DNA from: PVC group bacterium
Lineage (GTDB): Bacteria; Auribacterota; Erginobacteria; Erginobacterales; Erginobacteraceae
Length of the DNA: 49,675 bases
Direction: 5' to 3'
NCBI GenBank assembly: GCA_043804695.1
Contig: JAZDIV010000151.1
Location: 1 to 49,675 of the forward strand
The notes beneath the pieces were generated by a model, which worked only from the letters and a program-made list of their open reading frames with translations, had not been told where the DNA came from and did not search any database. The first letter of the stretch is position 1, and every line of letters begins with the position of its first letter. The position numbers and the translations under genes were made by a program. Shown piece by piece: positions 353 to 22,142 of this stretch.

Positions 353-353
353 A

Positions 354-1058: not shown

Positions 1059-1152
1059 ATTCCCACTTTCCTTTTAAATCCAATAACCTTACTCCCGGTG
1101 TGACCCTGGGTGCACTATTAAAGACAGTTAAATTGAAATTGGGAGGAATAAT

Positions 1153-2283: not shown

Positions 2284-2406
2284 TAAACCGGGGATTAGGG
2301 ATCAGTTCGTGTATTTATGCAATTCTTGCTTCCACACGATCATGTGAAACTATAAATTTAAGGTCGGGGATAATAATATGTCTTCAGGGTCACCCCCCGA
2401 TTAACA

Positions 2407-2526
2407 AGTTCATGATTTAATTATTCTTGAATTTAAATCCCGTGTATTCAACCTTCCGGGCAGGGAGGGTTTTTTTGTATACCCTGAAATAAAAAAATAC
2501 ACTCTTTATCCAGTGATTGTTCTTAT
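2407..2526 (+). repeat. ~120-bp dispersed intergenic repeat, copy 1, containing a terminator hairpin
   Basis: Near-identical to 9949-10068 (about 5 mismatches by eye); ACCTTCC-GGGCA-GGGAGGGT followed by a T-run. Confidence 0.9.
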
Positions 2527-2746
2527 TCTATTTTCTCTTCAATTAATCATGGCAAGACAACTTGATCTCATGTATCGCGGCATCTCCGCTTTTAATCGGA
2601 TGGTTGTGATGCAGTAGGACTGAGAATTTATGATTTGTTTTAATAGTTAATCAATCGGATTAAAATCTAAATTTTCAAGCAATAGTCAGGGTTTGACCTT
2701 GGTTTTTGATGCGATGGGATAGAGACTTCAGCTGAAGGAGGATAGC

Positions 2747-4012
2747 ATGAAGAAATTAGCATTGATTGTTTTGCTTACTCTATTATCCACGGTGGCAGGT
2801 GCGGCCGAGCTTAACCCGCCGGCGCAAAAAGCTTTTGATTCAGCCTATGAGCTTAAGAAGAAAGGCCAGTTTTATGATGCGATTAAATTCTATGAACTAG
2901 CAATTCGGCTTGCCCCGGAATTCCAGGGGATATGGATGGAGTTTGTTGGTTGCCTGAGAAAAGCAAATTACTTGCAGCGCGCGGCCCGCGCAGGCTGGCG
3001 CGCCCTCGAATTGGGACCGCCAACCGCTGACATTTGGGGCAATCTTGGAAATGTTTTCGACCAGGCGAGAGAATGGGATGCGGCAATGGCCGCTTTCAAA
3101 AAAGCGGAAGCCCTCTCCGATGACAAACGCTGGATCGCTCAGAAATTTCTGAATCTGGGATACGGGGAAATGGTCAGCGGTCACGAGGGCCTTGCATTGA
3201 AGACATTTCAGTATGCCTTAAAAGTAGATCCGTCTCACGGGCTGGCAATGGTTGATTGCGGAGTAGCGAAGGCATCTCTGGGAAACATTGAAGAGGGGGT
3301 CAAAGAAATTAAAAAAGGCATAGCCCAGATCAGGAAGGAACATAACAACAAACCCGGGCAATACGGAGGCATTAAATACGCGCAGACCGCGTTAGATATT
3401 GTTGAAAAAGATGGGAAGATCAAACCGTCCGTGGATTTTAGAAAGGAGCCTTTTCAGAGATTGCCGGAACGATTTCTTGCCCAACCACCTAAAGGCTCTG
3501 CGCTCTCCCTCAAGATTGATGATAAAGTAGAAAGATCGTATCAGATCAGCCCTCAAGGTATTTTGACGATTACTACACCTGAATCATGGCGCGAGCGGAT
3601 CGTGGAAAAGACTTATCCTGTCACAGAGTTTAAAAGTTCAGCAACCGTTTATTCTCCGGATAATGGGGAGCGGTTCGAGTTTCTTCTAACTCCCTATCCG
3701 ACAACTAAAAAGATATCCGAAGTTGAATCTATAGTTAAAAAAATCGGGCAACAACGCCTAAAAACTTCCGTTGAGAAAAAGCTGGATTTGATACAGGTCA
3801 AATCGCCTTCCGCTAATGGATATGTATATATATTAACTGACAAGAAACTTGTTGGAAACAAACTCAAAGAAGGTGAATATCTACATGCGATTCAGGGAGT
3901 TATCAAATCCGGCAATAGCTGGTCCTATATCACGGTTCTCACTGATAACAGAGCGGAAAAATTCGTCGAAGAGATGCTCACTATCATGAAGAGCATTTCT
4001 TACCGCGAATAA
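2747..4012 (+). CDS. Secreted TPR-repeat protein
   Basis: Signal peptide MKKLALIVLLTLLSTVAGA; TPR motifs (WGNLGNVF..AREWDAAMAAFKKA; FLNLGY..ALKTFQYALKVDP); GGAGG RBS. Confidence 0.8.
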   Translation: MKKLALIVLLTLLSTVAGAAELNPPAQKAFDSAYELKKKGQFYDAIKFYELAIRLAPEFQGIWMEFVGCLRKANYLQRAARAGWRALELGPPTADIWGNLGNVFDQAREWDAAMAAFKKAEALSDDKRWIAQKFLNLGYGEMVSGHEGLALKTFQYALKVDPSHGLAMVDCGVAKASLGNIEEGVKEIKKGIAQIRKEHNNKPGQYGGIKYAQTALDIVEKDGKIKPSVDFRKEPFQRLPERFLAQPPKGSALSLKIDDKVERSYQISPQGILTITTPESWRERIVEKTYPVTEFKSSATVYSPDNGERFEFLLTPYPTTKKISEVESIVKKIGQQRLKTSVEKKLDLIQVKSPSANGYVYILTDKKLVGNKLKEGEYLHAIQGVIKSGNSWSYITVLTDNRAEKFVEEMLTIMKSISYRE

Positions 4013-4033
4013 TTAAAAGGAATCAGAAAAAAT

Positions 4034-4175
4034 CAGGGGTAAACCCCAAATACTAAGTCTATGATATAGCTGTTTGCGAATTCAAGTTTCACGTACTCAA
4101 CCTCCCGGAGAGGGAGGTTTTTTCTTGTGTACCTGGCTCTTAACCGATAAACTCCTTATCCATAATGGTTCTCAG
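4034..4175 (+). repeat. Diverged third copy of the 120-bp repeat, with intrinsic terminator AACCTCCC-GGAGA-GGGAGGTT-TTTT (~4099-4123)
   Basis: Colinear similarity to 2407-2526 by eye; preceded by CAGGGGTAAACCCC. Confidence 0.65.
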
Positions 4176-4381
4176 TTTCTATATTCATTAATCAATTGTG
4201 ATAGGAACCATCAACCCCTAATACCGCCGCATCTTAACCCTGAAGCTGAGGTAAAATCCAGTCGGTAGTCGAGGTTTGATCCCGTGCCTTTCCCCTTCGC
4301 CTTGAAGACCAGGAGTGGTAATATGGACAAGTTCGGGGATGACCCCCAATAAGTCGCCGCTGGAGAAGAATAATATCCATC

Positions 4382-5590
4382 TTGCTCAAACGCCTGCTGG
4401 TACTGCTTTTGATACCCGCCGCGCTGGTTCTTCTCGTAACCCCTCTCCCCACCCACAGCAGCGCCTACGTGGAACAGGACTTTGTGTTCGTCATCGCCTC
4501 CCCGAGATCGGCCAAAACGAAGTTTGACAATGAGCTTCCGCGGATAACCCGGGAAGAGCTGCAGCCGTACCCGCATATTCTCCGGGCGGTTGAGGACCGA
4601 GGGGCGGAATTTGCGAGTTTTCGGGTTTCCGACGAGGAAGATGGTAATTCACTGGGACTGGAGGAGCTCGGCAAGACGCTCTCGGAGATGGAAGGGGTCT
4701 CCCCGGAGGACGCGGAACGGCACCGGAAGACCGTTGCCAAGAGCAAAGAGATGTTTCGCCGGGCGGAAGAAGAATCCCGGAAGGTTCAGCGGACGCTCCT
4801 GGCCGCCCGGCAGGAAAGCTGGGAGCATGCACCCACCGATATTCCGGTCGGGGAGTGGCAACAGATGGTGAGTGATCTTCTCGATTCCGGGGAGAGAGAA
4901 GCTTCGTTTCTCTTCGACGGATCTCTCTATCAGGGATTCGTGAGATATGACAGCGCTTGTATAAATCAGCCGATTCCGGGTCTCGAGATCGGGCAGAGAA
5001 TAGCGGGTGGTGTCTTTCTCCTCATCGGCATATTGCTGATTACAGGCCTGTACAGAGAGAAGACGGGCATCATGATAGCGAAACGCTGGGGGATCGTCCT
5101 CTGGGATGTCATCTCTATCTGTGTCAGCGGATTTTTTCTCTACGGTGTCATCGACCTTGCCCTGGTGAAGGTATTCGGCACGCCGACGGCTACCGAGGAG
5201 TTTCTCCAGTTCATGGGGGTCTTCTGGGTGGTCTTCGCCATTCCCGTCCTCGCTTTTCTCATTTCAGCGACCGCCGCTCAGGCGGTCGAGATTGACGGGA
5301 AAGGCATCAGGCTGGACGGGCTGTTTACAGAGAGGTTTATCCCCTGGGAAGAGCTCCGAGGAATCGAGGTTACCGAACTGCGATCGGTGAAGCGGGCGGG
5401 GGGCTTTACCGCTCCGAAGCGGCTGATGAAGATCATGTGGCTGACGGGCGATTCTTCGTCCATCACCCTGATGGAGCCGCCGCTCAAATCCACCAAGCAG
5501 CGTATCTTCGAAGCCCTGACAGCCCACGCACCGGCAGAGTGGAAAGGAACTATCGAAGAAGAGGGGAAGACCTGGCGGGCATTTTTCTAA
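4382..5590 (+). CDS. Hypothetical membrane protein (N-terminal anchor, soluble helical region, several TM helices, bacterial PH-like C-terminal domain)
   Basis: Long ORF with hydrophobic segments; VEIDGKGIRL...RFIPWEELRGIEV resembles bPH domains; start uncertain. Confidence 0.65.
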   Translation: MLKRLLVLLLIPAALVLLVTPLPTHSSAYVEQDFVFVIASPRSAKTKFDNELPRITREELQPYPHILRAVEDRGAEFASFRVSDEEDGNSLGLEELGKTLSEMEGVSPEDAERHRKTVAKSKEMFRRAEEESRKVQRTLLAARQESWEHAPTDIPVGEWQQMVSDLLDSGEREASFLFDGSLYQGFVRYDSACINQPIPGLEIGQRIAGGVFLLIGILLITGLYREKTGIMIAKRWGIVLWDVISICVSGFFLYGVIDLALVKVFGTPTATEEFLQFMGVFWVVFAIPVLAFLISATAAQAVEIDGKGIRLDGLFTERFIPWEELRGIEVTELRSVKRAGGFTAPKRLMKIMWLTGDSSSITLMEPPLKSTKQRIFEALTAHAPAEWKGTIEEEGKTWRAFF

Positions 5591-9110: not shown

Positions 9111-9875
9111 ATGAAAAAGCGATATCCGGCTTTCATATTTGCGGTTCTGGTCGTGAGCGCGGGCTGTTCTTCATCATCAGAGTTCAAGCAGGTGCAGTAC
9201 GAGCGGGACGTCCTGGACGGTGAAGTGACCGTCCTGCGCGACCGGGTGAAGGAGTTAACCTCCGACCAGAGCGATCTGCTGAAAGACCTGGACCTGATGA
9301 AGGCCGGAAAAGCCTCCGTCGAAGAGGAGAGAGACAGCCAGTCTCTGCAGAACCGGAATATCCGTCACGCGGTCAGAGAATTTATCCGGCAGCAGCTGCA
9401 AGCTCTCCGGGAACTGTCTCTCCAGCGCGGACTGATGGATACCGTCGGAAGTGAGATCATCACCCGCAAACAGAACGACCGGGAATCCCGGCTTATTGCT
9501 GATTTCCAGCATCCCGTGCCCTCCCAGGCAACCCTGCTCGGCATCGGGTTCAACGCCGGGGGGGAGACCCGCCTGTCGCCCTGCCTGCTGCGTCCATCCG
9601 GGGAACAACTGACGGTCATCTGGCGGGGAAAGGAACTTCACGCCGAGAAAGCCGGCACTTATTACTCCCTGTTTGATGTTCCTGTGATCGCCCAAAAAGG
9701 CGACTTGATCGGAATTGCCAGTCCCGCAGGACTGGACATTACTTATGACCCGGGCGTGGGCGATGGACGGATACTTGATATTATCGCCGCGCCGGGCGAA
9801 TCACTTCCTGCAGGGGACTTTAAAGACAAAAGGAAACGCGCCTATTCATTCAATATGTATGGAATTATAGAATAG
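9111..9875 (+). CDS. Putative lipoprotein with coiled-coil region
   Basis: Lipobox-like VSAGC after a hydrophobic stretch; heptad region; GAGGAG RBS. Confidence 0.7.
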   Translation: MKKRYPAFIFAVLVVSAGCSSSSEFKQVQYERDVLDGEVTVLRDRVKELTSDQSDLLKDLDLMKAGKASVEEERDSQSLQNRNIRHAVREFIRQQLQALRELSLQRGLMDTVGSEIITRKQNDRESRLIADFQHPVPSQATLLGIGFNAGGETRLSPCLLRPSGEQLTVIWRGKELHAEKAGTYYSLFDVPVIAQKGDLIGIASPAGLDITYDPGVGDGRILDIIAAPGESLPAGDFKDKRKRAYSFNMYGIIE

Positions 9876-9884
9876 CTGTAAATC

Positions 9885-9908
9885 GGGGTCAAATCTTTAC
9901 TTTTGACA
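9885..9908 (+). repeat. REP-like motif GGGGTCAAATCTTTACTTTTGACA
   Basis: Imperfect palindrome GTCAAA...TTTGAC; related copy on the opposite strand at 10738-10761. Confidence 0.6.
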
Positions 9909-9948
9909 ATAGGAATTTATGCGAATCAGGGTCTAACCCCAATTATTG

Positions 9949-10068
9949 AGTTCATGATTTGATTATTCTTGAATTTAAATCCCGTGTATTAAACCTTCCG
10001 GGCAGGGAGGGGTTTTTTATATACCCTGAAATAAAAAGATACACTCTTTATCCAGTGATTGTTCTTAT
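9949..10068 (+). repeat. ~120-bp dispersed intergenic repeat, copy 2, containing a terminator hairpin
   Basis: Near-identical to 2407-2526; preceded by CAGGGTCTAACCCC (9927-9940). Confidence 0.9.
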
Positions 10069-10207
10069 CCTCTAATTTAATTTCCATGAATAATCCGGGT
10101 TAAAGGCTCCTCAAATGTGTCAGCGGTCACTTAAAATGGGCCATTAAAGAACGGTTCACTTTGAGATGGTTAATAATCAAGTTGCTCATGGCAAGGAGGT
10201 TGGGGAT

Positions 10208-10639
10208 ATGAAAGCTGATGAAAAGACGAGGGAGGAGGTTCTTGCGGTCCTGGACAGGTTGAACGAGGGGTACGCCGCGGGCGATCTGGAAGGGATGGCG
10301 GCTCTGTATACCACCGATCCCGACCTGGTAGCCATCGGGACGGGTAAGGACGAGAAGTTTCTCGGGCTGGAGGCCGTCCGGGAGGGTCTTGAGCGGGACT
10401 TCGCCCAATCGGAGAGCGTTGCGATTGAGGTTGACTGGTCCTCGGTCTCGGCGCGGGGGGACGTGGCGTGGCTGGCGGCGGAGACGACGGCCCGGGTAAA
10501 GGCCGCCGGGGGAGAGATGACCATCCCCGCCCGCCTCACCATGGTGCTTGAGAAGAGGGACGGCCGTTGGCTCATTGCGCAGTTCCACCTTTCGATGGCG
10601 ATGCCCGAGCAGGCCGCAGGAGAATCATTCCCGGGTTAG
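10208..10639 (+). CDS. SnoaL-like / NTF2-family protein
   Basis: YAAGDLEGMAALY, RLTMVLEKRDGRWLIAQFHLS; AGGAGG RBS before ATG 10208. Confidence 0.85.
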   Translation: MKADEKTREEVLAVLDRLNEGYAAGDLEGMAALYTTDPDLVAIGTGKDEKFLGLEAVREGLERDFAQSESVAIEVDWSSVSARGDVAWLAAETTARVKAAGGEMTIPARLTMVLEKRDGRWLIAQFHLSMAMPEQAAGESFPG

Positions 10640-10737
10640 GCTCTAAAAGTTTCGGCGCACAAGATACTCCGGCGGACAGGCTGTCCTAGCGGCCGGGGGG
10701 CTGGGATTTTTTAGGGGGGCAGCCGCCAAGGCCCTAA

Positions 10738-10761
10738 AGTCAAGAGTAAGGATTTGCCCCC
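10738..10761 (-). repeat. REP-like motif (GGGGGCAAATCCTTACTCTTGACT on the minus strand)
   Basis: Inverted relative of 9885-9908. Confidence 0.55.
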
Positions 10762-10769
10762 CACTCTCT

Positions 10770-11192
10770 TTATTTTAAGAAATCGAAGTAGACCGCGACT
10801 AAAAGGGCCACCGCCGACAGGCCGAAGATGAAGAAAAAATTGATCCGTTCTTTCCGGGAGCTCAAGGCGCAGAAGATGGCGCCGACCGCGTCGTAGTCGT
10901 CGTCCGACAGCCCGCTCCGGCGGGCAAACTTCTCCACCAGGCCCCTCTCCTCGATGATCCGGGAGCGGGCCTGGTTTACCCTGAACTTGTAGACGAAGAA
11001 GAGGAAGAACCCCGCCACCCCCACGTACCACGCGGCCTTTCCGTAGACGGGGTTGACACTGATCAACACCGTGACCACCCTGAGCGCGATCGTGGCGATC
11101 AGCCCGATGATGAAAAAGATCCAGGACGACGCGCTGTCCCGGCACCTCCGGTACTCGACACAGTGTGCGCACCTTGATGTATCTTTCCTCAT
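10770..11192 (-). CDS. Small hypothetical membrane protein (3 TM) with N-terminal CxxC-x5-C
   Basis: MRKDTSRCAHCVEYRRC then three hydrophobic segments; GGGAG RBS. Confidence 0.65.
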   Translation of the reverse strand: MRKDTSRCAHCVEYRRCRDSASSWIFFIIGLIATIALRVVTVLISVNPVYGKAAWYVGVAGFFLFFVYKFRVNQARSRIIEERGLVEKFARRSGLSDDDYDAVGAIFCALSSRKERINFFFIFGLSAVALLVAVYFDFLK

Positions 11193-11462
11193 GAAAACGG
11201 CTCCCCGTCCCCGGGACCGACACAGAAATAGTAGCAGGAAAGGGGTCGGGAGTCCAGGCATTTCCCCGGGCCGGTAATTTTGGGGTCGGATCACAATAAC
11301 TTCTTGCCTGCCAAATGCTTAAGTGTAAAATAGGACGGGACGTAAATAAGGCGTGAAGGGTTGAAATATCCGTATCTTCCTGAATAAGAATGGATATTGC
11401 GGTCCGACCCCGGAAATCAAAAGTCGAAGACGGCCCGCGCTTTTCGGCGCTCCCGGGAGTTG

Positions 11463-12068
11463 TTAGAAATAAACCCCCAGTCCGAGGCGGAACTGCAGGT
11501 GGTCCAGTTCCCAGTCCTCTTTGTCGACCGTCACAAAACCCTGGTTGGGGATAAACGTTTCATACACCAGTTCCGGAGAGAGCATGTTATAGCGGAATTC
11601 CGGCCGGAGTATCAAATACTCGGTCAGACTGATCTCGGCGCCCAGGCAGGCAAAATAAATCATGCTGTCTTTCAGCGTGGTAAAATACCCGGTCGAGCCC
11701 CCCGAGTATTTGTTGTAGCTGTAGCCGATCCCCAGGCCGGCGTAGAGGAAGACGGGCTCAAAGGTCGGCCCCGCCCGTACGGCCACGGTGACGGGGAGGA
11801 GTTCGATGTCATCCGACTCCGTGTCCTTGATATCCGGATTGAGGTAATCAACGCCCAGGTCCACCTTGAGATACGGGGTCACGGCACAGACGAGCGCCAG
11901 GCCGCCGCCGAAGGCATCTTCGGGCTTGAGTTCACCCGGTTTCAGATCGCCGCTGAACTCAAAGGCGTACAGCCCGCTGGCCGTGATACCGAATGTCTGG
12001 GTAAACGCCGGGCCGGCGATGCCGGCCATGACGAACATGCCCAGGCTCCAGAGAACCAGTCTTTTCAT
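11463..12068 (-). CDS. Outer-membrane beta-barrel protein (OmpW/OMP_b-brl-like)
   Basis: Signal peptide, alternating aromatic strands (LYAGLGIGYSY), C-terminal FRLGLGVYF; GGAGG upstream. Confidence 0.8.
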   Translation of the reverse strand: MKRLVLWSLGMFVMAGIAGPAFTQTFGITASGLYAFEFSGDLKPGELKPEDAFGGGLALVCAVTPYLKVDLGVDYLNPDIKDTESDDIELLPVTVAVRAGPTFEPVFLYAGLGIGYSYNKYSGGSTGYFTTLKDSMIYFACLGAEISLTEYLILRPEFRYNMLSPELVYETFIPNQGFVTVDKEDWELDHLQFRLGLGVYF

Positions 12069-12282
12069 CTCCCTGCCTCCTTTTGGTTTTTTCGGGTCGG
12101 TTTTTTCGGGTCGGACCACATTAATTTGTTCCGGCACAAATAGATGCGTATATTTTAACCTTCATGTGGGGTCTTACAAGCTATTTTCAGCCCTGAAAAT
12201 CGCCGGTAAAGAAGGACGTCACATCGAAAAAGAGGCCTAAAATCATCACCCATCTTCTAACCCGATTTATTCATAAATCTGG

Positions 12283-13719
12283 TTAACCGGATGGCCCCAG
12301 TTTCTCTTCCAGAAGGCGGCGCAACTGTTTGGGGTCGGCCGTGCCGCCCGACGCTTTCATCGCCCGGCCAACCAAAAACCCGAGAGCCGGTTTCTTGCCG
12401 ATATGGTAATCCTGAACCGCGTCCGGATTATCCGCGATCACTGCGTCCGCGACCGCCTCGAGCGTTTCCCGGTCGGATACCTGTGCCAGCCCTTCCTCAG
12501 CCACGATCGCGGCCGGTTCGAGGTCGCTTTCAAAGAGACAGGCCAGCACTTCCTTCCCCGCGCTGGAGCTGATCTCCCGCCGTTCGACCAGGAGCAAAAG
12601 CGCGGCCAGCCGGACGGGGGTTACCCGGGTCGAGGCGAGGGACTCGCCCCGTTCCCGGAGGATGGGGAGAAGCCGACCGGTTATCCAGTCGACCGCGGCC
12701 CGCGGCGGCGCCCCGGCGGCCACCACGGCTTCGTAGTAATCGGCCAGCTCGCGCTCCGAGCTCATCAGGGCGGATTCCTCCGGGGTCAGGCCGTGCCGCT
12801 CCTCGAAGGCCTTCCTCCGGGCGCCCGGCATCCCAGGAAGGCGGCTCCGGAGCCCCTCCAGAAACTCCGGGGAGACCATGATCACGGGAACGGAGGGGTC
12901 CGGGATGCAGGGCCCGGCGAACTTGCCCCGCATCGGGGTGGTGACATTCCTCTCCGGGTCCCAGAGGCGGGTGTGCAGGGTCACCTGTTTCCCCCGGCCG
13001 ACCAGTTCCGTCTGGCGGGCGATTTCGTGGGCGATGGCGTTCCCCACGTGCCGGATCGAGTTCATGTTCTTGACCTCGACCTTGGTGGCGAGACCGGTCG
13101 ATCCTTCCGGGCGGATGGAGATGTTGGCGTCGGCCCTCATGGTCCCTTCGTCCATGCTGCACTCGGCCGTCCCCGCGTAGCGCAGGCACCCCCGCAGCAT
13201 CCGCAGGAACTCCATGGCGTCATGGGGAGAACGCAGGTCGGGCTCGGTGACGATCTCCACCAGCGGGGCTCCCGCCCGGTTGAAGTCGACCAGGCTGAAA
13301 CGCCGCCGCCCCTCGGTCTCGTGGAGAAGTCGGGCGACGTCCTCCTCCATGTGCGTCTCCCGGATGCGAAGGCGTTTCCAGCCGCCGTCTTCGGCGGGGA
13401 TGTCCAGCCAGCCGTTCCTCCCCAGCGGCTGGTGGAACTGGGAGAGCTGGAAACCCCGGGGGAGGTCGGGGTAGTAGTACACTTTCTGGTCGAAGGCGCT
13501 CTCGGGCTGGACCTCACAGTTCAGGGCCAGGCAGGAGAGGACCGCCTTCTCGAGAGATTCCCGGCCGAATTGCTTCAGCGTGCCGGGGATACCGAGGCAG
13601 ATCGGGCAGATGTTGCTGTTAGGAGGGTCGCCCGGCGCATTCCGGCAATCACAGAACATCTTCGTGGCGCAGTTCAGCTGGACGTGGATCTCCAATCCGA
13701 TGACCGCTTCGTAGTTCAT
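12283..13719 (-). CDS. gatB: Asp/Glu-tRNA amidotransferase subunit B (divergent)
   Basis: GLEIHVQL, YYYPDLP, HMEED, DFNRAGAPLVEIVTEPD, RADANISIR, VEVKNMNS, C-terminal YqeY-like domain. Confidence 0.95.
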   Translation of the reverse strand: MNYEAVIGLEIHVQLNCATKMFCDCRNAPGDPPNSNICPICLGIPGTLKQFGRESLEKAVLSCLALNCEVQPESAFDQKVYYYPDLPRGFQLSQFHQPLGRNGWLDIPAEDGGWKRLRIRETHMEEDVARLLHETEGRRRFSLVDFNRAGAPLVEIVTEPDLRSPHDAMEFLRMLRGCLRYAGTAECSMDEGTMRADANISIRPEGSTGLATKVEVKNMNSIRHVGNAIAHEIARQTELVGRGKQVTLHTRLWDPERNVTTPMRGKFAGPCIPDPSVPVIMVSPEFLEGLRSRLPGMPGARRKAFEERHGLTPEESALMSSERELADYYEAVVAAGAPPRAAVDWITGRLLPILRERGESLASTRVTPVRLAALLLLVERREISSSAGKEVLACLFESDLEPAAIVAEEGLAQVSDRETLEAVADAVIADNPDAVQDYHIGKKPALGFLVGRAMKASGGTADPKQLRRLLEEKLGPSG

Positions 13720-14969
13720 CCCGTCCCCCCGCCGCCGGGTTTGACGGGGCCGGGCGCCCCGCCGCGGGAATCCGCGATCCGCCCGGCGAACTCCAGAAGC
13801 CGCGCGTCGGAGAGGTGCGGTCCGACCACCTGCAGGCCCAGGTCCGTTCCGCCGCTCACCGCGAAGCCGGGGAGGCTAACCGCCGGAGACCCGGTTACGT
13901 TGGCCGGAAGCGTGAACGCGAAGGCCTGGTAGGTCCCGGCGACGGTCTTCTCTTCCCCCACCTCCCGTCCGTGACGCCGGGTGGGGAGGAGAAGGAAGTC
14001 CACCTCGCCGAATATTTTCTCTGTTTCCTCGACCAGCCGCCGCCTGATCCGGCAGGCGTTCTCGAAGGCCGCGTAGTCCCTGAACTGGAAGTAGGCCCCC
14101 TGGAAGAGGTAGGATTTTAACAGGGTGCCGAAGGCTTCCCCGCGGGTTTTGATATACATCTCGTTCCAGTTCCCGCAGTCTTTCGCCCGGTACCCGAAAC
14201 GGACGCCGTCATAATTTCCGGCGCTGGAAGAAGCCTCGACCGAGCCGATTATTTGATGCGCCAGCGGGAAGATGTCGAAATCGGGGAGAGTTACTTCCCG
14301 GACGGTGTAACCTCTTTTTTCGAGGATCGCGACGGCCTGGCGCAGGGCCTCGGTTTCTTCGGGGAGCAGAGCGGCCAGGCACTCGCGGATCACACCCAGC
14401 GTGGCCGGCCGCCCGCCGGGCGGCCCGTCCCGACGGAAGTCGGGCAGCCCCCGCCGGAGCATCGAGAAATCCTCCTCGTCAACGGTTGCCAGCACCGCGG
14501 CTATCTTCCGGATCGGGGAGATGTCGCGCGCCGCCACCCCGGGGCATTCCATGGAAGGGACGAGGCCGATGACCCCGGCCCGGGAGAAGATCCCGTAGCT
14601 CGGCTTGTAGCCCGTGACCGCGGCCCCGGTGGCCGCGACCCGGATTTCACCCAGGGTGTCGAGGCCGAGCGCCGCGGTGCAGCGGGTTCCCTCCAGGGTC
14701 GCCGCCGTCGTGTCCCCGGCCAGCCCGAAGCCCATCTCGCTGATTCGGGGGGCGCCGGGGAAGGCGGCTCCCGCCTCCCGGAGCAGGCGGACGGCGGTCG
14801 AGTCTTCCGGTGCCGTGAAGCCTTTCAGCGCCCGGGAGACAGCCCCGGCCGGCCGGCCGCGGACTGAGAAATTGGGGGAGATAAGCACGGAGACCCCGGC
14901 CAACTCTCCCCGGCCGTCCGCGGCCGGCCGGCGGTTCAGGGATAAAAGCGGTTTCTTCTTTGTCTTCAT
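13716..14969 (-). CDS. gatA: GatA-like amidase-signature protein lacking catalytic residues
   Basis: GYKPSYG, EASS..YDGVRFGYR, TRGEAFG, TLPANVTGSPAVSLP, GLQVVG; sits between aspS and gatB with 4-bp overlaps; triad missing. Confidence 0.85.
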   Translation of the reverse strand: MKTKKKPLLSLNRRPAADGRGELAGVSVLISPNFSVRGRPAGAVSRALKGFTAPEDSTAVRLLREAGAAFPGAPRISEMGFGLAGDTTAATLEGTRCTAALGLDTLGEIRVAATGAAVTGYKPSYGIFSRAGVIGLVPSMECPGVAARDISPIRKIAAVLATVDEEDFSMLRRGLPDFRRDGPPGGRPATLGVIRECLAALLPEETEALRQAVAILEKRGYTVREVTLPDFDIFPLAHQIIGSVEASSSAGNYDGVRFGYRAKDCGNWNEMYIKTRGEAFGTLLKSYLFQGAYFQFRDYAAFENACRIRRRLVEETEKIFGEVDFLLLPTRRHGREVGEEKTVAGTYQAFAFTLPANVTGSPAVSLPGFAVSGGTDLGLQVVGPHLSDARLLEFAGRIADSRGGAPGPVKPGGGGTG

Positions 14970-17074
14970 TCCAGTATGGCGGGGACCTTGAAATAGCCGT
15001 TTTTAGCGGAGGGAGCGCCCTTTAAAAGCGAGCCGTCCCGGGCCAGGGGATGGACCCGAGGGTCCCTTCCCGTCCGTTCGCGCCCTCCGGCTTTAATCGG
15101 GGAGTAGAGCGGTTCTTCTTCGCCGGCCCGCTCCCCGGCCCGTTCCGCCGCGTCTTTCGCTTCCCCGACGGCGGCTTCCAGGGCGGATCTTTCCCCCTCC
15201 CGGATCCCGATCCGGGAGACCCAGGAGAGCGACGAGACAAGGTCGATATCTTCGGGGGCCGGGACGGCGCTCCGCTCGCCCGCGTCCGCGAGGTTCAGTT
15301 CCCGGAGCTGTTCCCGGTCCACGGGGGAGGGGGCGCCGGTCAGGGGACAGGCGGCGGCCCGGTTTTTCGGGAAGGCGATCACCTCCCGGATGCTCGGCGC
15401 TCCCAGGATCATCGCCGTTACCCGGTCAAGCCCCAGAGCTATCCCCCCGTGCGGCGGCGCACCGTATTTCAGGGCGTCGAGGAAGAAGCCGAACCTCTCC
15501 CGCGCCACCGTGTCCTCCAGGCCGAGAGCCCGGAATATCCGGGCCTGGAGATCGGCGCTGTTAATGCGGATGCTGCCGCCGCCGAGTTCCTCGCCGTTCA
15601 CGACGAGATCGTAAGCCCGGGACCGCAGAGAGAGCAGATCTTCTCGATCTCCGGGGTCGAAGTCGTCCCGGTCCGGGGCGGTAAAGGGGTGGTGCCGGGA
15701 GGTCAGTCCGTCTTCGGCAGCTTCAAAGAGCGGAAAATCCGTGATCCAGACCGGCCGGTATTCGCCTTCCGGTATCAGTCCCAGCCGATTGCCCAGATGG
15801 AGGCGGAGCCGGCCCAGGGCGTCAGTCACGATCTGTGGGTTCTGGTCGGCGATCATCAGGATCACGTCGCCGTCCCCGGCGCCGAACCTCTCCAGGATAT
15901 TCGTCCTCTCCCCGGCGGTGAAGAAACGCACGATGTTGGATTCGAGCGTGTCCCCGGCCACCCGCATCCAGGTCATGCCCCGGGCCCCGAACTCCGGGAC
16001 GAGGCGTTGGGCGTATTCGTTCTGCAGGATGTTCTTGCTCAGAGCCGCGGATTGTCCTCTGACGTTGATCCCCTTGATCAAGCCTCCCTGCTCGATGATT
16101 TTCCTGAAGACGGCGTAGCCTGTCCCGGAGAAGATGTCGGTCGCTTCGATGAAGCGCAGGCCGAACCGGAGGTCGGGGCGGTCGGTTCCGAAGGAGTCGA
16201 TCGCTTCCCGGTAGGGGAGGCGGGGGAACGGGCGGGGAAGGTCGATCCCCCCGACCGCGAACATCCGTACCGTCAACTCTTCGAGCAGCTCGTAGATAAA
16301 CTCCTCGTCGATGAACGCGGCCTCGATATCCAGCTGGGTGAATTCGGGCTGGCGGTTAGGGCGCAGGTCCTCGTCCCGGTAGCAGCGGACGACCTGGAAA
16401 TAACGTTCGAACCCGCTGAACATGAGGATCTGCTTGAAGAGTTGCGGGGACTGGGGCAGGGCGTAAAAGCACCCCGGGTGGACCCGGCTCGGGACCAGGT
16501 AGTCGCGGGCGCCCTCGGGCGTGCTCTTGGTGAGCACCGGGGTCTCTATTTCGACGAACTCCCGCGAGTCGAGGAAGTCCCGGGCGCACTTGATGATCCG
16601 GTACCGTCGGACCAGGTTTTCCTGCATCGAGGGGCGCCTCAGATCGAGATAGCGGTATTGAAGCCGGAGGTCTTCTCCCACGGCGTCACCCGCCACCGCC
16701 CCCCCGGCCACCATCGCCTTTTCCGAAATCGGGAAGGGGAGGATCGGGGAGGGGTTCAGGATCGTGAGTTCGTCGGCGATTATTTCGACCTCGCCGGTTT
16801 CCAGGGCCGGGTTTTCCGACCCCGGGCGCCGGACGACCACCTCGCCGCGCACCGCGACGCAGTATTCCTCCTTCAGGCGGCCCGCCTCCGCCCTCACGCC
16901 GGGCGTTTTGTCGGGGTTGAAGACCACCTGGATGATCCCGCTCCGGTCCCGCAGGTGGACGAAGAGGATGTTGCCATGGTCCCGGAGCGCGTCCACCCAC
17001 CCGGCCGCCAGGACCCGGCGGCCGGCGGCGGCTTTGCGCAGGGAACCGCAATATGTCCTTGATTGAAATTTCAA
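14966..17074 (-). CDS. aspS: Aspartyl-tRNA synthetase (probably non-discriminating) with a C-terminal GatC-like fusion
   Basis: RDHG, DRSG, RYRYLDLRR, STPEGARDY, LPQSPQLFKQ, RQPEFTQLD, GGGSIR, APPHGGIALGLDR, IREVIAFPK; last ~95 aa end in AP...GYFKVPAILE like GatC. Confidence 0.95.
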   Translation of the reverse strand: MKFQSRTYCGSLRKAAAGRRVLAAGWVDALRDHGNILFVHLRDRSGIIQVVFNPDKTPGVRAEAGRLKEEYCVAVRGEVVVRRPGSENPALETGEVEIIADELTILNPSPILPFPISEKAMVAGGAVAGDAVGEDLRLQYRYLDLRRPSMQENLVRRYRIIKCARDFLDSREFVEIETPVLTKSTPEGARDYLVPSRVHPGCFYALPQSPQLFKQILMFSGFERYFQVVRCYRDEDLRPNRQPEFTQLDIEAAFIDEEFIYELLEELTVRMFAVGGIDLPRPFPRLPYREAIDSFGTDRPDLRFGLRFIEATDIFSGTGYAVFRKIIEQGGLIKGINVRGQSAALSKNILQNEYAQRLVPEFGARGMTWMRVAGDTLESNIVRFFTAGERTNILERFGAGDGDVILMIADQNPQIVTDALGRLRLHLGNRLGLIPEGEYRPVWITDFPLFEAAEDGLTSRHHPFTAPDRDDFDPGDREDLLSLRSRAYDLVVNGEELGGGSIRINSADLQARIFRALGLEDTVARERFGFFLDALKYGAPPHGGIALGLDRVTAMILGAPSIREVIAFPKNRAAACPLTGAPSPVDREQLRELNLADAGERSAVPAPEDIDLVSSLSWVSRIGIREGERSALEAAVGEAKDAAERAGERAGEEEPLYSPIKAGGRERTGRDPRVHPLARDGSLLKGAPSAKNGYFKVPAILE

Positions 17075-17303
17075 CGTTTATCTGACTCCCGGAGAGTAAT
17101 TTTAAAGAGTGTATAGTATTTAAGTGGAGAGTCAAATCTTTCTCGATCAGAAAACCGGGAATCGGCTGATGAATCCCTGCCGTGACGGAAAAAACACGGG
17201 ATCAGTTTAAAGCGGGATCCGATAACGTGATATGATCTGGTCATCAAGGACTGATCAGTGTATATTAAAAAGAACAGGAGATAAATCTCCAGGGAGGTGT
17301 TGT

Positions 17304-17870
17304 ATGAAAAAGTTTCTGGTCGTCGCAGTTTTAATAGTGGGGGCAATCCCGCTGTTTCTTCATGCCGGAGATGAAAAAGATATCGGGGAGATGCTCTTAA
17401 ACTTCAAAGATTGCCTTCGCCTTGACAACCATCAGAAGGCCGCCGGTTACCTCAGCCCGCGCTTCGTTAATGCGCTTAAAGCCGCCGGCGATAAAACTCA
17501 ATCCCAGTCCGGCTCCGGACAAAGCTATAATTTTCTTCACGAAGACCCGGTCGAGTTCGTAAAAAGTGAACTAGACGGAACCTTCTTCGAGGACTTTGAG
17601 ATCGGCTCGATTAAACAAACGGGTGATATCGCCACCGCCGATTTGAAGCTCAAGAGCGGCAAGCTGGTAAAACTCTTCCTGGAAAAGCAGAGCGACGGCT
17701 GGAAGATCACCCCGGCTCCGCAGGATGTCCTCCAGGAGTCTATTAAAACAGACCAGGTCCGGATTCAGCAACTGGATGAGAAGCGGCACGCGATAGAGTG
17801 GAGGCAGCATCTGGCGGACGATATCAACGCCGACCGATGGGATAACGGGTGGTACTGGAGCGAACGCTGA
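17304..17870 (+). CDS. Secreted hypothetical protein (NTF2-like fold possible)
   Basis: GGAGG RBS, signal peptide MKKFLVVAVLIVGAIPLFLHA, GDIATA...LEKQSDGWKI. Confidence 0.7.
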   Translation: MKKFLVVAVLIVGAIPLFLHAGDEKDIGEMLLNFKDCLRLDNHQKAAGYLSPRFVNALKAAGDKTQSQSGSGQSYNFLHEDPVEFVKSELDGTFFEDFEIGSIKQTGDIATADLKLKSGKLVKLFLEKQSDGWKITPAPQDVLQESIKTDQVRIQQLDEKRHAIEWRQHLADDINADRWDNGWYWSER

Positions 17871-17930
17871 TCTGAAAGATTTCGAATTTGTTCCTGAAAA
17901 AACTGGGGGACCATTCCGGAGAAGAAATCG

Positions 17931-19229
17931 TTGCGGAAAAAATATATAAGGTGGCTTATCGCCGAGTTGCCCGACCTGATGGGGAGAAATATTCTCTCGC
18001 CGGATGCCGCCGACCGGCTGCGGGAGTACTACGGAGGATTCGGGAAGGAAGGGAAGAGGACTCTCGCCGCCAACGCCTTCAGCATCCTGGCCGCGATATT
18101 GATCGGTTCCGGGATCATCCTTCTCCTGGCTCATAACTGGGATGAACTTTCCCGGGAGATCCGGGCCGTTATCTCGTTCGTACCCCTGGTGGTCGCCCAG
18201 GTCCTGGCCGGATGGGGGATCTGGCGGGGAAAAGAGTCCCGGGGTTGGAAGGAAGGCATCTCGATCTTCCTCATGCTGGCGATGGGGTCCTCCCTCGCCC
18301 TGATCTCTCAGACCTACCACCTCTCGAACGACCCGGATACCTTTACCTTGACCTGGATGCTGCTGAGCATCCCGCTGGCCTACCTGGTCGGCGGGGGGGC
18401 GATTATTCCCCTCTATCTGACGGGCATTACCGTCTGGACCGGTATGGCGCATGCTTTCGAAGGGCACCCGACCTTCTTCTGGCTGCTCATCGCGCTCCCA
18501 CTCCCCTATATCTGGGCGATCAGTAAGAAGGATCCCTATCGGACGGGGCCGGTTCTCCTCCGGGCCTGTTTCACGGTCTCATTGATTATCGGAACCGCGA
18601 TCATCCTGGCCGATGTTCTCGGCAAGTACTGGGTGCTTATCTTCAGTTCCATGTTCGCGATTACCTACCTGGTGGGGCGCATCTGGTTTGACGACGCTCC
18701 GCCCCGCGTCGCCCTCCAGCCTTTGCGGAGTATCGGGGGGGCGGGGGTGCTGGTTGTCGCACTTTGGGCATCCTTTAGAGGGTCCTGGGAAGCTATCGGC
18801 CGGCACCCCGGCTTATTGTTTACCATCAGCCCCGAGATACTGCTGACCCTGGTACTCCTGATAGGATCTTTCGGCCTGCTCATAATCTGCCTGGTCAGGT
18901 TCAAAGGGTCCGGGGGATTACTGGGATCGTTGCCGCTGGTGGCCCTGCTCGGGACGGTCGCGGCCCGGGCCGGGGGGGCGATCGGGATCAATATCGTTCT
19001 CTTCACCGCCTACGTCTTTATCCTGGGGCTGACGAACCTGCTGGCCGGGATCAAAGAATGGTCCGTCGGGCTGATTAATCTCGGCATGGTGATTCTCTGC
19101 CTCCTGATCGTGATCCGGTTTTTTGACAGCGACCTGAGTTTTACCGTCCGGGGAGTGGCCTTCATCATTACCGGGATCGGTTTTCTTTTAACCAATGGCA
19201 TCCTCCTCCGGAAAAAGCAGTCGAAGTGA
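17931..19229 (+). CDS. DUF2157-family membrane protein
   Basis: LIGSGIILLLAHNWDEL, LALISQTYHL, many TM helices; paired with a GDYXXLXY gene. Confidence 0.85.
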   Translation: MRKKYIRWLIAELPDLMGRNILSPDAADRLREYYGGFGKEGKRTLAANAFSILAAILIGSGIILLLAHNWDELSREIRAVISFVPLVVAQVLAGWGIWRGKESRGWKEGISIFLMLAMGSSLALISQTYHLSNDPDTFTLTWMLLSIPLAYLVGGGAIIPLYLTGITVWTGMAHAFEGHPTFFWLLIALPLPYIWAISKKDPYRTGPVLLRACFTVSLIIGTAIILADVLGKYWVLIFSSMFAITYLVGRIWFDDAPPRVALQPLRSIGGAGVLVVALWASFRGSWEAIGRHPGLLFTISPEILLTLVLLIGSFGLLIICLVRFKGSGGLLGSLPLVALLGTVAARAGGAIGINIVLFTAYVFILGLTNLLAGIKEWSVGLINLGMVILCLLIVIRFFDSDLSFTVRGVAFIITGIGFLLTNGILLRKKQSK

Positions 19230-19233
19230 TTGG

Positions 19234-19812
19234 ATGAAGAAGAAATACTGGATATTAGGCGCTTTCATCCTGTTGGCGGTTGTACAGATCGCCGTCTCCG
19301 CTGCCCGGATTGTGAAGTGGGAGGACGTCCTCCGGACGGGGACGCTGTTGCGGTTCCGGACCGAGCCGGTCGATCCCTCCGACGCCTTCCGCGGCCGGTA
19401 CGTGGCCCTCGAATTCGAGCAGAGCACCGTCCCTCTCGAACTCGGCCCGGATCTCAAAAGAGGGGAGGAGGTCTATGCCCGACTCGGGGAAGACGAAGAG
19501 GGATTTGCCCGGATCGGCAAGCTGGTAAAAGAGAGACCGACTGAGGGGAACTACCTCAAGGTCGACGTATTGTATGGTAGTACCCGCGACAACAAAATCC
19601 ATCTCCAGTTTCCGTTCCACCGCTTCTACCTGGAAGAGGAGATTGCGCCGGCTGCCGAGAAGGCTTACAGGGCCCGGAGCAGCCGGGACAAGCGCGACGC
19701 CTATGTAACCGTCCGCATCAAGAACGGCTACGGGGTCTTGGAGGAACTATTCGTGGGAGGGAAACCGATTATGGAATTCCTCCGGGATGAAAAGGGGGCA
19801 GGGGATGGTTAG
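19234..19812 (+). CDS. GDYXXLXY-domain membrane-anchored protein
   Basis: TEPVDPSDAFRGRYVALEF, RFYLEE; usual partner of DUF2157. Confidence 0.85.
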   Translation: MKKKYWILGAFILLAVVQIAVSAARIVKWEDVLRTGTLLRFRTEPVDPSDAFRGRYVALEFEQSTVPLELGPDLKRGEEVYARLGEDEEGFARIGKLVKERPTEGNYLKVDVLYGSTRDNKIHLQFPFHRFYLEEEIAPAAEKAYRARSSRDKRDAYVTVRIKNGYGVLEELFVGGKPIMEFLRDEKGAGDG

Positions 19813-20045
19813 CCCCCGGAATTGGGTTAAGGTATAAAGCGCGAATCATCATTTCGCCATTGAAAATATGAACTAATGAGTAGACGTGACCCCTATGATC
19901 TGATCTCGCAAAGGAGTTAATCAAATCCCTGAACGCCTCAATGGGAAGTGGTGTCTTAGACACCACTTTGGCGGAATGCCGTAAGAAGCAATAACTTACA
20001 ACCACCCCGCGCCCAAAATCAGCGAAAACTCATGGACAAACCGCC

Positions 20046-20771
20046 GTGATGAAACAATTGATAGTCTTAGTAATTACAGCCGGAGTCATTCTTTCTTTTC
20101 CTGTGCTAACAAAAGGAAATGGTGGCGCAGAGATTATATCAAAAAGCGAGGAACTCTTGGATCTGGGGCAAGTCGAAGAAACTCGGGCGTTGCTTGAGAA
20201 AGGGATAAATCCGAGAAGGCATGCAAGCAAGCTATCGAACTGAACCAAGATAATCTTGATGCCTGGAGGTCATTAGGGCTCACATATTGTGCTTTCAGGA
20301 ATGAAAATAAAAAGGGAGAGGAAGTCTTTAAGAAGATGATAGAGCTTTTCCCAGACAAGGCGGATGGTTATCTGCGGCTGGGGCGTTCTCTATGGCAAGC
20401 TGGATAAGCCAACTGAAGCGTTGCCTATGTATCTCGAAGCAGTTGATGTAGAACCGGAAAACCTCTATGTAATTTATTTATTATTCAGTTTTTTCAATAA
20501 CCAAGAGTGGAAAAAAGCGAGGGATGCAATAGCTCGTCTGGGATTAAAGGCAAAACCGGACGGCACTCTTGATATGCAAGAATGTTATTATAAAGGAGAA
20601 TATTATAAGCAGCTGGAGATGTTGGATAACGCCGAAAAGCTTTATCAAATGGCTTTAGAAAAATATCTTCGAAAAGATTCATATCGTGAATCGATAGAGT
20701 ATGAACTGAATTCTTTGCAATGGGAAAAAAAGCTTAATGAAATAAGAAGAGAGCGCTTAGCTGTTAGCTGA
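20046..20771 (+). pseudogene. Secreted TPR protein broken by two frameshifts (~20203 and ~20380)
   Basis: Signal-peptide ORF 20046-20243; middle frame reads KACKQAIELNQDNLDAWRSLG...FKKMIELFPDKADGYLRLG; third frame GVLYGKLDKPTEALPMYLEAVDVEPEN; AT-rich. Confidence 0.7.
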
Positions 20772-21218
20772 ATTTGAAGAGCAGACCGATTCTATGCCAG
20801 AAAATCCATCATCAAAACATAGACGCGAAATCTTGGCCCATGAACGGGAAGAAATATTAAAGATCTGGAATGATTGGAAAAAGAAACAGAATATTTAGAA
20901 CATTTCATTCTCCTGTTGCGTGTACTCCATCAATCATAAATAAGGCAGGGGACTATTTGGGTTTGTGCATGGTTCCCGGTGGCTTAAGGAATGGCAATAG
21001 TGTTTCTGTAGAGGTTTTCAGGTTGTCCTGAATACCGGAGGTTGATTTGAACGGCTGGGAACGATCCCATGGTAGGCAATCTCCCATCTCCGCCAACTAC
21101 ATCCGTGTCCGGAGCATCACGAGAAGGCGATCAAGAAGCGCGCCAAATTTATGCCGACCCCCGGCCTTCTGGTCAGAATTATTATCTGTCCGATCGGGGG
21201 GACTTGGTAGTTGATCTG

Positions 21219-21289
21219 TAGAATTTAGGGTTTGACCCTCATTTTACTGATTTTTACAACTTAGAATTTAGGGTTTGACCCTCATTTTA
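21219..21289 (+). repeat. Tandem 28-bp direct repeat TAGAATTTAGGGTTTGACCCTCATTTTA x2 (15-bp spacer)
   Basis: Exact copies at 21219-21246 and 21262-21289; core AGGGTTTGACC also at ~2688-2698. Confidence 0.9.
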
Positions 21290-21305
21290 AGTAAGGAGGT
21301 TTTAC

Positions 21306-22142
21306 ATGAGAAATGGATTGTGGCGGACAGGGATAGTCGCGGGTGCGCTGCTCACCCTGGCAACAGCAGCCGGAAGCGAACAATCGGCGGCGGGTGAGAA
21401 AAAAACCCGGGTCGAAGTCCGGGGACTCCGGATAGCGGGAAAGGGCTACGGCGACGACCAGATGATGCGCCCCTTCAACTGGAGCTACGGGACCGTGCTC
21501 GCCCTGCTCCTGATATCGGACGAGGGGGGGGTCATCGCCTTTGACGAAGACAAGAGCGTCGTCTTGAAATGCCGGGACGACCGGGGAACCAACCTCCTGG
21601 AGGAGGTGAAGGAAGAAGGGTTCGCTCAAAAAGCCGGCTTCGGCGGTTTCCCCGACATCAGCCCCGACGGCAAAGCCTGCCTTCTCGAGCTGAGGCTGCA
21701 GAGGAACGCCGCCCCGGGAGCGACCGTCATCGAAGCGGCAGGCATTCTGGTGGTGACTTTTGCCACCGAGAAGGAAACGCACCGGCAGACGGTTGCTCTG
21801 AAAAACGGTGAGATTGTTTCCGCCGGCCCGATCACGTTTCAGATCACCAAAATCGGCAAGCCCGAGTATTCCACGAACGAAGGCGACGGGCTTTCGTTCG
21901 CCTTGGAAGCGAAACAGGACCTGGGCTCGGTGGCGGAGATCACGTTCTTCGACAGCGAAGGACAAGAGATCGAATCCTCGTCCCAGGGGCAAAGCCGATG
22001 GGGGATAATGGGCGGTATCACGGAGCAGTGGGCGTATAATCTGAAGAGGAAAGTGGAGAACGTCACCATAGCCGTGACCCGCTGGACCGATATGGCTGAA
22101 ACCCGGATTCCATTTTCCGTCAAGGTCACACTCGGCCTTTAA
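21306..22142 (+). CDS. Secreted hypothetical protein
   Basis: AAGGAGG RBS, signal peptide, 278-aa beta-rich ORF. Confidence 0.7.
   Translation: MRNGLWRTGIVAGALLTLATAAGSEQSAAGEKKTRVEVRGLRIAGKGYGDDQMMRPFNWSYGTVLALLLISDEGGVIAFDEDKSVVLKCRDDRGTNLLEEVKEEGFAQKAGFGGFPDISPDGKACLLELRLQRNAAPGATVIEAAGILVVTFATEKETHRQTVALKNGEIVSAGPITFQITKIGKPEYSTNEGDGLSFALEAKQDLGSVAEITFFDSEGQEIESSSQGQSRWGIMGGITEQWAYNLKRKVENVTIAVTRWTDMAETRIPFSVKVTLGL

Follow-up and report, generated by a model that had tools for sequence, protein, structure and literature searches.

An AspRS-GatC fusion next to a GatA without the glutaminase triad: a candidate ammonium-dependent transamidosome in a PVC group bacterium

The window analyzed here is a stretch of 49,675 nucleotides from a PVC group bacterium (assembly GCA_043804695.1, contig JAZDIV010000151.1, positions 1 to 49,675 of the forward strand). 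It contains a cassette of three genes: aspS2-gatC, which encodes an aspartyl-tRNA synthetase (AspRS2) continued by a C-terminal GatC domain; gatA', which encodes a protein of the GatA fold that has lost the glutaminase triad; and gatB', which encodes a GatB. The cassette is read as an accessory, self-contained asparagine (Asn) transamidosome that would amidate Asp-tRNA(Asn) with free ammonia and not with glutamine, and this reading is given a probability of about one half. The fusion, its GatC homology, the loss of the triad, the retained GatB motifs, the conserved gene order and the co-occurrence with canonical genes are observed, and a model of the interface is supportive; the catalytic steps, the tRNA substrate and the nitrogen donor are inferred. 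The fused gene is already familiar from annotation, and the novelty lies in the complete cassette, as a variation on a known type.

The fused gene and its GatC domain

The first part of the fusion is a bacterial AspRS. Residues 3-596 match the family model TIGR00459 with 683.7 bits, above its cut-off of 373.85, and Pfam places the anticodon-binding domain (PF01336, tRNA_anti-codon) at residues 23-106, the synthetase core (PF00152, tRNA-synt_2) at 134-572 and the GAD domain (PF02938) at 323-420. When aligned with the canonical AspRS of the same genome, the fusion is 49% identical overall, and QSPQ, motif 2, HHPFT, GGGSIR and GLDR are common to both. The canonical enzyme ends approximately 12 residues past a shared ...QLKEL/QLREL, whereas the fusion adds about 109 residues. 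The histidine of the RDHG motif is a mere correlate of the non-discriminating (ND) type of AspRS, which accepts both tRNA(Asp) and tRNA(Asn) for charging. Both paralogues have it (LRDHGN for the fusion, RRDHGG for the canonical enzyme), and therefore the motif cannot distinguish one from the other.

The architecture is already catalogued in NCBIfam as NF009460 (PRK12820), the model for a bifunctional AspRS/GatC. With 1141.5 bits (E 0) it corresponds to the fusion end to end, as residues 1-702 align to positions 18-723 of its 723. The name of this model is silent on the dead GatA partner. The score falls below the curated equivalog cut-off of 1379 bits, and three relatives that have the same cassette (class I) likewise remain below it. 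However, as these relatives reach 1340-1357 bits, the model was evidently built on the class to which the window belongs. Databases label such fusions simply as 'aspartate--tRNA ligase'. The fusions in 16 related loci are 60-64% identical to that of the window.

The identity of the tail does not come from single-sequence searches, as the tail alone is a marginal match in all three GatC models used, which makes this line of support weak. It scores 15.4 bits against PF02686 (E 0.022, gathering cut-off 23) and 19.3 bits against TIGR00135 (E 0.001, cut-off 47.1), both below the cut-off, and it aligns to positions 8-92 of 97 in NF000684 with an E value of 0.0027. Profiles give a clearer picture. 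With hhalign, a profile of the 16 fusion tails (A1) was compared with one built from canonical GatC, using 16 proteins of related genomes (A3); this gave a probability of 98.1% and an E value of 1e-13 over 89 columns, spanning GatC positions 4-93 of 93. The linker precedes the matched columns and is unaligned and variable in A1. When A1 was searched against 1.84 billion representative sequences, it matched free-standing proteins of approximately 94-105 amino acids end to end, and in 8 of the 8 that were checked, Pfam found GatC with 39.5-92.1 bits. This library is clustered at 50% identity, which hides most of the full-length fusions (a single 710-aa representative was seen), and the search gives no family size. 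Among solved structures, the best match to the tail profile is Staphylococcus aureus GatC (2df4_C, E 5e-4). By these comparisons, the tail of about 92 residues is a full-length, divergent GatC domain.

Structure modeling places this domain on GatA' in a manner resembling a GatC-GatA interface. The complex of tail and GatA' was predicted with an ipSAE of 0.88, while the best control reached 0.05; solved complexes attain that mark in 116 of 157 cases and mismatched pairs in 2 of 215. At least 66% of contacts are common to the three runs, the partner pLDDT is at least 58, and the contacts to GatA' are made by tail residues 20-68. The modeling covered the pair of tail and GatA'.

A fused frame could also be produced by an assembly or frameshift artefact that joined aspS to a separate gatC. 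This is extremely improbable, and nothing was found in its favor. In tblastn searches, all 16 related loci read through from aspS into the tail with no stop between them. The 14 loci that hold the whole gene match uninterrupted in one segment, which covers residues 1-702 in 12 of them, 1-701 in L030 and 4-702 in L025; the remaining two, L018 and L021, start inside the fusion gene. At least 115 similar proteins of approximately 700 amino acids exist in databases, and 115 of the best 120 matches are 693-751 amino acids long and cover 99-100% of the tail. Further support came from a public DNA run, in which a contig of a related strain spans positions 15210-15442 without gaps. Thirteen letters differ there, and the nine of them that are listed introduce no stop; four residues are changed (594 and 598-600), which lie in the linker or just ahead of it. 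The run held 0.13 of the sampled words and its contigs are short and 85-99% alike, making it useful for the junction only. No public RNA run was listed for this stretch.

The original prediction, which was made from the window alone, had described a 702-residue AspRS with extra C-terminal residues that form a GatC. Both statements were borne out: one uninterrupted open reading frame (ORF) encodes the AspRS and then the tail, and the weak match of the tail alone gives way to the A1 versus A3 result. Its proposal that reads and relatives be inspected for a separating stop produced none. As a discovery, however, the fusion does not stand, as NF009460 already names it. The prediction had also taken the RDHG histidine as a sign of a non-discriminating enzyme; the residue is indeed present in the fusion, but it is not distinguishing.

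A triple fusion of AspRS, GatC and GatA' was also considered and rejected. In L026 an ORF of 1102 amino acids (1496-4804(+)) suggests such a protein, and long open frames of this kind occur elsewhere, including G154:C31. The fusion nevertheless has a stop directly after ...FKVASILE in L026, and the same is seen in L020. The long ORF mimics a triple fusion because the gatA' frame stays open for more than 1100 codons upstream, across aspS-gatC, in GC-rich DNA.

Table 1. Genes of the cassette and parts of the fusion protein (positions in the window)
Feature	Position	Strand	Description
aspS2-gatC fusion gene	14966..17074	(-)	702 aa + stop, TTG start; cassette gene 1 (ORF list)
AspRS part, residues 1-596	15287..17074	(-)	OB anticodon-binding domain, class II core, GAD insertion
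Linker, ~14 residues (597-610)	15245..15286	(-)	between the AspRS end and the GatC domain
GatC domain, residues 611-702	14969..15244	(-)	invariant SWVSRI and ...FKV..ILE
gatA'	13716..14969	(-)	417-aa GatA-fold protein; S31 for Lys, loop deleted, E108 for nucleophile Ser
gatB'	12283..13719	(-)	478-aa GatB over family cut-off; remodelled cradle-helical linker

GatA', GatB' and their canonical counterparts

The three genes are tightly linked. The fusion stop overlaps the gatA' start in an ATGA of 4 nt, a second such overlap links the gatA' stop to the gatB' start, and the ORF list of the window contains no gatC within the operon.

GatA' is 30% identical to the canonical GatA of the same genome. 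Against TIGR00132 it scores 227.1 bits, below the cut-off of 481.1, and only model positions 145-460, the rear two thirds, are matched. PMC2330236 describes the Ser-cisSer-Lys triad of GatA and the part that the nucleophile, Ser178, plays as the covalent residue. The triad was examined in GatA' using three alignments: to the canonical GatA of the genome, to 16 orthologues, and to solved GatA chains from Aquifex and Thermotoga. None of the 17 members keeps the catalytic Lys: its place is taken by Gln in 15, by Trp in L022 and by Ser in the window. The GGSSGGS loop, which carries the cis-Ser, is removed by a gap of 24 columns, and the nucleophile Ser is changed to Glu, each in all 17 members. 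The alignment to the solved chains agrees on the loss of the triad. As all three glutaminase residues are missing from GatA', the complex cannot act as an ordinary glutamine-dependent GatCAB.

The GatA fold is retained in the predicted structure. An AlphaFold2 model of GatA' has a mean pLDDT of 77.9 and a pTM of 0.82, and its top Foldseek matches are GatA chains of transamidosome or GatCAB crystals, with TMq of 0.78-0.82. In the family alignment 64 columns are invariant, and these include D104, G107, E108 and R110 around the former nucleophile. The ratio of nonsynonymous to synonymous substitution rates (dN/dS) among three related genomes is 0.33-0.42, which counts against decay, and all ORFs of the cassette are intact in all loci. 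Judged by these comparisons, the putative loss of glutaminase function in GatA' is not decay.

GatB' is closer to the canonical form. It matches TIGR00133 with 473.6 bits (cut-off 314.8), contains both GatB domains (GatB_N, PF02934, at residues 6-288 and the YqeY-like PF02637 at 327-474) and is 47% identical to the canonical GatB of the genome. The cradle motifs GLEIHV, EED, NRAG.PL.E, R.DANIS and KNMNS are kept, and we take these to be for metal binding. In length, the region around the 3-10 turn is of the bacterial kind; this turn selects tRNAs with a U1-A72 pair, as PMC2811023 shows. After the cradle domain the protein is remodeled. Here, KEEA.DYRYFPEPDL is replaced by KF[EA]GP-C[VI]PDP in 17 of 17 members, the version in the window being KFAGP-CIPDPSV, with a gap of three residues and the Cys that is invariant in the family.

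The window genome (2.97 Mb, 155 contigs, 88% complete) also holds a canonical gatC on contig 23 (C23:25072-25350, 100.8 bits) that adjoins a canonical gatA (605.5 bits), a canonical gatB on contig 10 (602.3 bits) and a canonical aspS on contig 130 (763.3 bits). Since all of these are present, the cassette is an accessory, second and paralogous set. In the same 88%-complete assembly, AsnRS and GlnRS were not found over their cut-offs, and asparagine synthetase B gave no match at all; owing to the level of completeness, these are best described as not found rather than absent. These results answer the survey for asnS, a second aspS and a canonical gatCAB that the original prediction had proposed.

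The cassette is widespread. A scan of genome contigs produced 16 loci with the full tail, and the order of fusion, gatA' and gatB' is the same in 16 of 16. Their labels include Verrucomicrobia, Competibacteraceae, Smithella, Syntrophaceae, Desulfobacterales and Dehalococcoidia, and database matches add Kiritimatiellia, Gaiellales, Thermoleophilia, Auribacterota and Spirochaetales. Among relatives of the window genome the distribution is patchy: a GatA'-type gene (above 450 bits to the GatA' profile A2) occurs in 3 of 31 genomes, these being the window's own and 2 of 30 sampled relatives, and one further sampled relative carries a GatA' fragment. The five carriers that were surveyed from other lineages have two AspRS in every case and a canonical GatA in four. 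GatA' is present in 32 of the 121 genomes of the order to which the carrier labelled Smithella belongs, and 30 of these 32 have a second, canonical-type GatA match. On the profile scale of that order, GatA' scores above 530 bits, whereas canonical GatA scores approximately 170-198 bits and matches in the rear part only. One frame of 488 amino acids (G088:C32:9696-10958) matches nearly the entire profile (positions 10-402) with only 224.8 bits, and this GatA-like gene could be intermediate between the two.

A second, rarer class of fusion was found in two metagenome-assembled genomes (MAGs), L035 (Caldithrix) and L037 (Desulfobacteraceae), where it is followed by gatA and gatB. The class II tail matches canonical GatC directly, with 35-41% identity. 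Here, GatA keeps the Lys, the GGSSGGS loop and the Ser, and it is the sole GatA over the cut-off in each genome, which makes the fused GatC the housekeeping one. Both genomes also carry a second, unfused AspRS. The class II AspRS part is 53-54% identical to the window fusion (695-706 bits) and is closer to it than to the canonical AspRS of the window genome. Taken together, the two classes suggest that the fusion may have arisen a single time, with the glutaminase lost afterwards on the way to the window's class.

The proposed mechanism and its alternatives

In the proposed mechanism, AspRS2 would load aspartate onto tRNA(Asn). The C-terminal GatC domain would wrap GatA', so that the GatA'-GatB' core is held on the synthetase. 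GatB' would then phosphorylate the aspartyl side chain and amidate it. As GatA' has lost the glutaminase triad, the nitrogen is proposed to come from free ammonia and not from glutamine, and GatA' would function solely as a scaffold, with a possible additional role in ammonium entry. The ability of amidotransferases to accept NH4Cl when the glutaminase is bypassed is documented in PMC4027206. The gain for the cell would be Asn-tRNA(Asn), and hence asparagine, that is independent of the glutamine pool, sparing the ATP of glutamine synthesis. For a transamidosome that is strictly dependent on ammonium and independent of glutamine the odds are roughly even. To our knowledge, such a system has not been described.

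Several points weigh against this proposal. A second route would be redundant, because a canonical AspRS of putative ND type (it, too, has RDHG) together with canonical GatCAB should already make Asn-tRNA. Among the 36 tRNA genes found in the 88%-complete assembly there is no tRNA(Asn) gene, and the neighborhood of the cassette is free of tRNA genes both in the window and in 19 loci, apart from a tRNA-His approximately 3.9 kb upstream of the L029 fusion. AsnRS is present in 2 of the 5 carriers from other lineages. The linker of about 14 residues would have to bridge the distance from the C-terminus of AspRS to the GatC site in a transamidosome. As solved GatCAB structures exist, the high score of the tail-GatA' model may reflect memory of them, or likeness to them, and not binding. 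In addition, the loss of DYRYFPEPDL and the gain of an invariant Cys in GatB' could hint at other chemistry, and a dN/dS of 0.33-0.42 seems to lie on the relaxed side for a translation enzyme.

Some of these points lead to other explanations. The cassette could be a non-catalytic or decaying paralogue set, in which the GatA'-GatB' core has ceased to amidate and the fusion protein is either just a second AspRS or a sink or regulator, sequestering tRNA(Asn) or Asp-tRNA(Asn). The lost triad, a GatA' score of 227 bits against a cut-off of 481, the apparently relaxed constraint and the patchy occurrence among the relatives of the window all fit this idea. It is nevertheless unlikely, as 16 of 16 loci from distant lineages carry all three genes intact and in an unchanged order, the 64 invariant columns of GatA' persist, GatB' is over its cut-off with its motifs intact, and the cassette is kept in 32 of 121 genomes of one order. 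A different possibility is altered tRNA-dependent chemistry. Here, AspRS2 would charge a tRNA with Asp, GatB' would activate the side-chain carboxylate, and a nucleophile other than ammonia would attack, or the acyl-phosphate would be used in some other way, with the remodeled Cys loop of GatB' and the Glu/Asp/Arg cluster of GatA' taking part and a non-canonical aminoacyl-tRNA or a metabolite as product. This would explain why the glutaminase residues are replaced in a conserved and non-random manner (by Glu in all 17 members and by Gln in 15 of them), why the Cys motif of GatB' is invariant in all 17, and why the cassette is redundant with canonical genes and stands beside AsnRS in two of five carriers. 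However, no sulfur or other donor enzyme, transferase or special tRNA is conserved beside the cassette, GatB' keeps both its cradle motifs and the length of the region that reads U1-A72, and the use of ammonia is the simplest consequence of glutaminase loss; altered chemistry is therefore rather improbable. Read more broadly, GatA' would be a pseudo-glutaminase in which the invariant Glu/Asp/Arg site takes up or binds another nitrogen source or nucleophile, and GatB', through its invariant Cys loop, would turn Asp-tRNA into a product that differs from Asn-tRNA made with glutamine. The ammonium-dependent transamidosome is the mildest version of this idea; the boldest, a new aminoacyl-tRNA product, is improbable.

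The remaining alternative is that of the original prediction, in which the glutamine-dependent GatCAB of the cell is pre-assembled covalently on an ND-AspRS by way of the fused GatC. In its favor, the fusion and the GatC homology are real, the operon lacks a gatC, and in class II (L035, L037) a fusion does stand with a canonical GatA, the sole one above the cut-off in these two genomes. It is nonetheless very unlikely for the window, as GatA' of this class has neither the Lys nor the cis-Ser loop nor the Ser nucleophile, and a separate canonical gatC-gatA and gatB exist in the genome. The several claims behind it fared differently. A pre-assembled active GatCAB at this locus fails on the triad lost in 17 of 17 members and describes class II instead. 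Nor is this the only amidotransferase of the organism, which also has the canonical aspS, gatC-gatA and gatB. There is indeed no gatC in the operon, but one exists elsewhere in the genome (on contig 23). Tethering to GatAB is retained insofar as the model places the tail on GatA' (0.88 against 0.05), but the partner is a GatA without the glutaminase triad. This amidotransferase may plausibly be dedicated to Asn.

The proposed ammonium-dependent transamidosome has parallels among known systems. The bacterial Asn transamidosome (ND-AspRS, GatCAB and tRNA(Asn); PDB 4WJ3 from Pseudomonas aeruginosa and 3KFU from Thermus thermophilus) is built from the four protein modules that the cassette encodes. 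On 3kfu_E and 4wj3_A the GatA' model superposes with a TMq of 0.79, and GatB' matches 4wj3_B and 3kfu_F. In these complexes the parts are non-covalent, held together through the tRNA, and glutamine-dependent, whereas here GatC is covalently joined to AspRS and GatA has no triad. A synthetase is likewise joined to GatC in the glutamine transamidosome of Thermotoga maritima (PDB 3AL0 chain C, named 'subunit C, Linker, Glutamate--tRNA ligase 2'), an engineered GatC-linker-GluRS made for crystallization. It differs in being artificial, with GatC at the N-terminus, GluRS in place of AspRS and an active GatA. AtzE-AtzG, a non-translational complex derived from GatCA, is an active amidase and is not known to include GatB or a synthetase. 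It provides a precedent for a repurposed GatA/GatC-like pair, and its structure (PDB 6C62) ranks 31st among the Foldseek matches of the GatA' model. A second synthetase that feeds an amidotransferase is also seen in GluRS2 of Helicobacter pylori and AspRS2 of Thermus and Deinococcus (PMC2777447, PMC4206432). These systems are not known to have a GatC fusion and use the single glutamine-dependent GatCAB of the cell. None of the 4WJ3/3KFU, 3AL0 and GluRS2/AspRS2 systems has a triad-less GatA. Full-text literature searches, with subscription papers outside their scope, turned up nothing on an AspRS-GatC fusion in nature, nor on a GatA that lacks the triad.

Substrate channelling between a synthetase and an amidotransferase that depends on glutamine has a textbook example in the indirect route to Asn-tRNA. 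Here the cassette is naturally fused and widespread, and its glutaminase is disabled in the same way in every member. This raises the questions of whether a tRNA amidotransferase can work on free ammonia in vivo, what role GatA has besides the supply of ammonia, and why a cell would maintain two parallel transamidosomes. In addition, public annotation as plain AspRS and GatA masks the fact that these are paralogues, and metabolic reconstructions of how these mostly uncultured anaerobes use asparagine and glutamine would be misled by it.

Flanking genes and minor observations

The 88 flanking ORFs of 14 loci contain no recurring neighbor, be it a donor enzyme or a glutaminase to stand in for the lost one. 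L031 alone has two amidase-signature genes downstream of gatB', at 9329-10759(+) and 11182-12429(-), which match Pfam Amidase over their full length with 335.8 and 299.9 bits and are possible suppliers of ammonia to the cassette in that locus. One tRNA call in the window genome, 'tRNA-Asp(atc)' at C88:23933-24004 (72 nt, ARAGORN), is probably false, its cloverleaf having mismatches and many G-U pairs.

Flanks of mobile or defence type occur in L027:2-655(-), L020:2410-3877(-) and L030:54-762(+). They comprise a TrwC relaxase fragment, toxin-antitoxin genes of the PemK, BrnT and CopG types and a nucleotidyltransferase-HEPN pair, and may be regarded as compatible with horizontal spread. In the window genome there is no signal of recent transfer in the G+C content at third codon positions, which is 0.82-0.85 in the cassette, 0.79-0.84 in canonical aspS, gatA and gatB, and 0.67 in the short canonical gatC.

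The cassette is flanked in the window by ORFs of 212, 432 and 205 amino acids within 17232-19812(+) and by one of 224 amino acids at 11463-12137(-). No family-library search was made for these flanks, and they resemble no cassette flanks elsewhere. Measured in steps of 2 kb, the G+C content of the window ranges from 0.44 (2001-4000) to 0.69 (36001-38000), against a genome mean of 0.578, with low-GC stretches at 1-4000 and 20001-22000.

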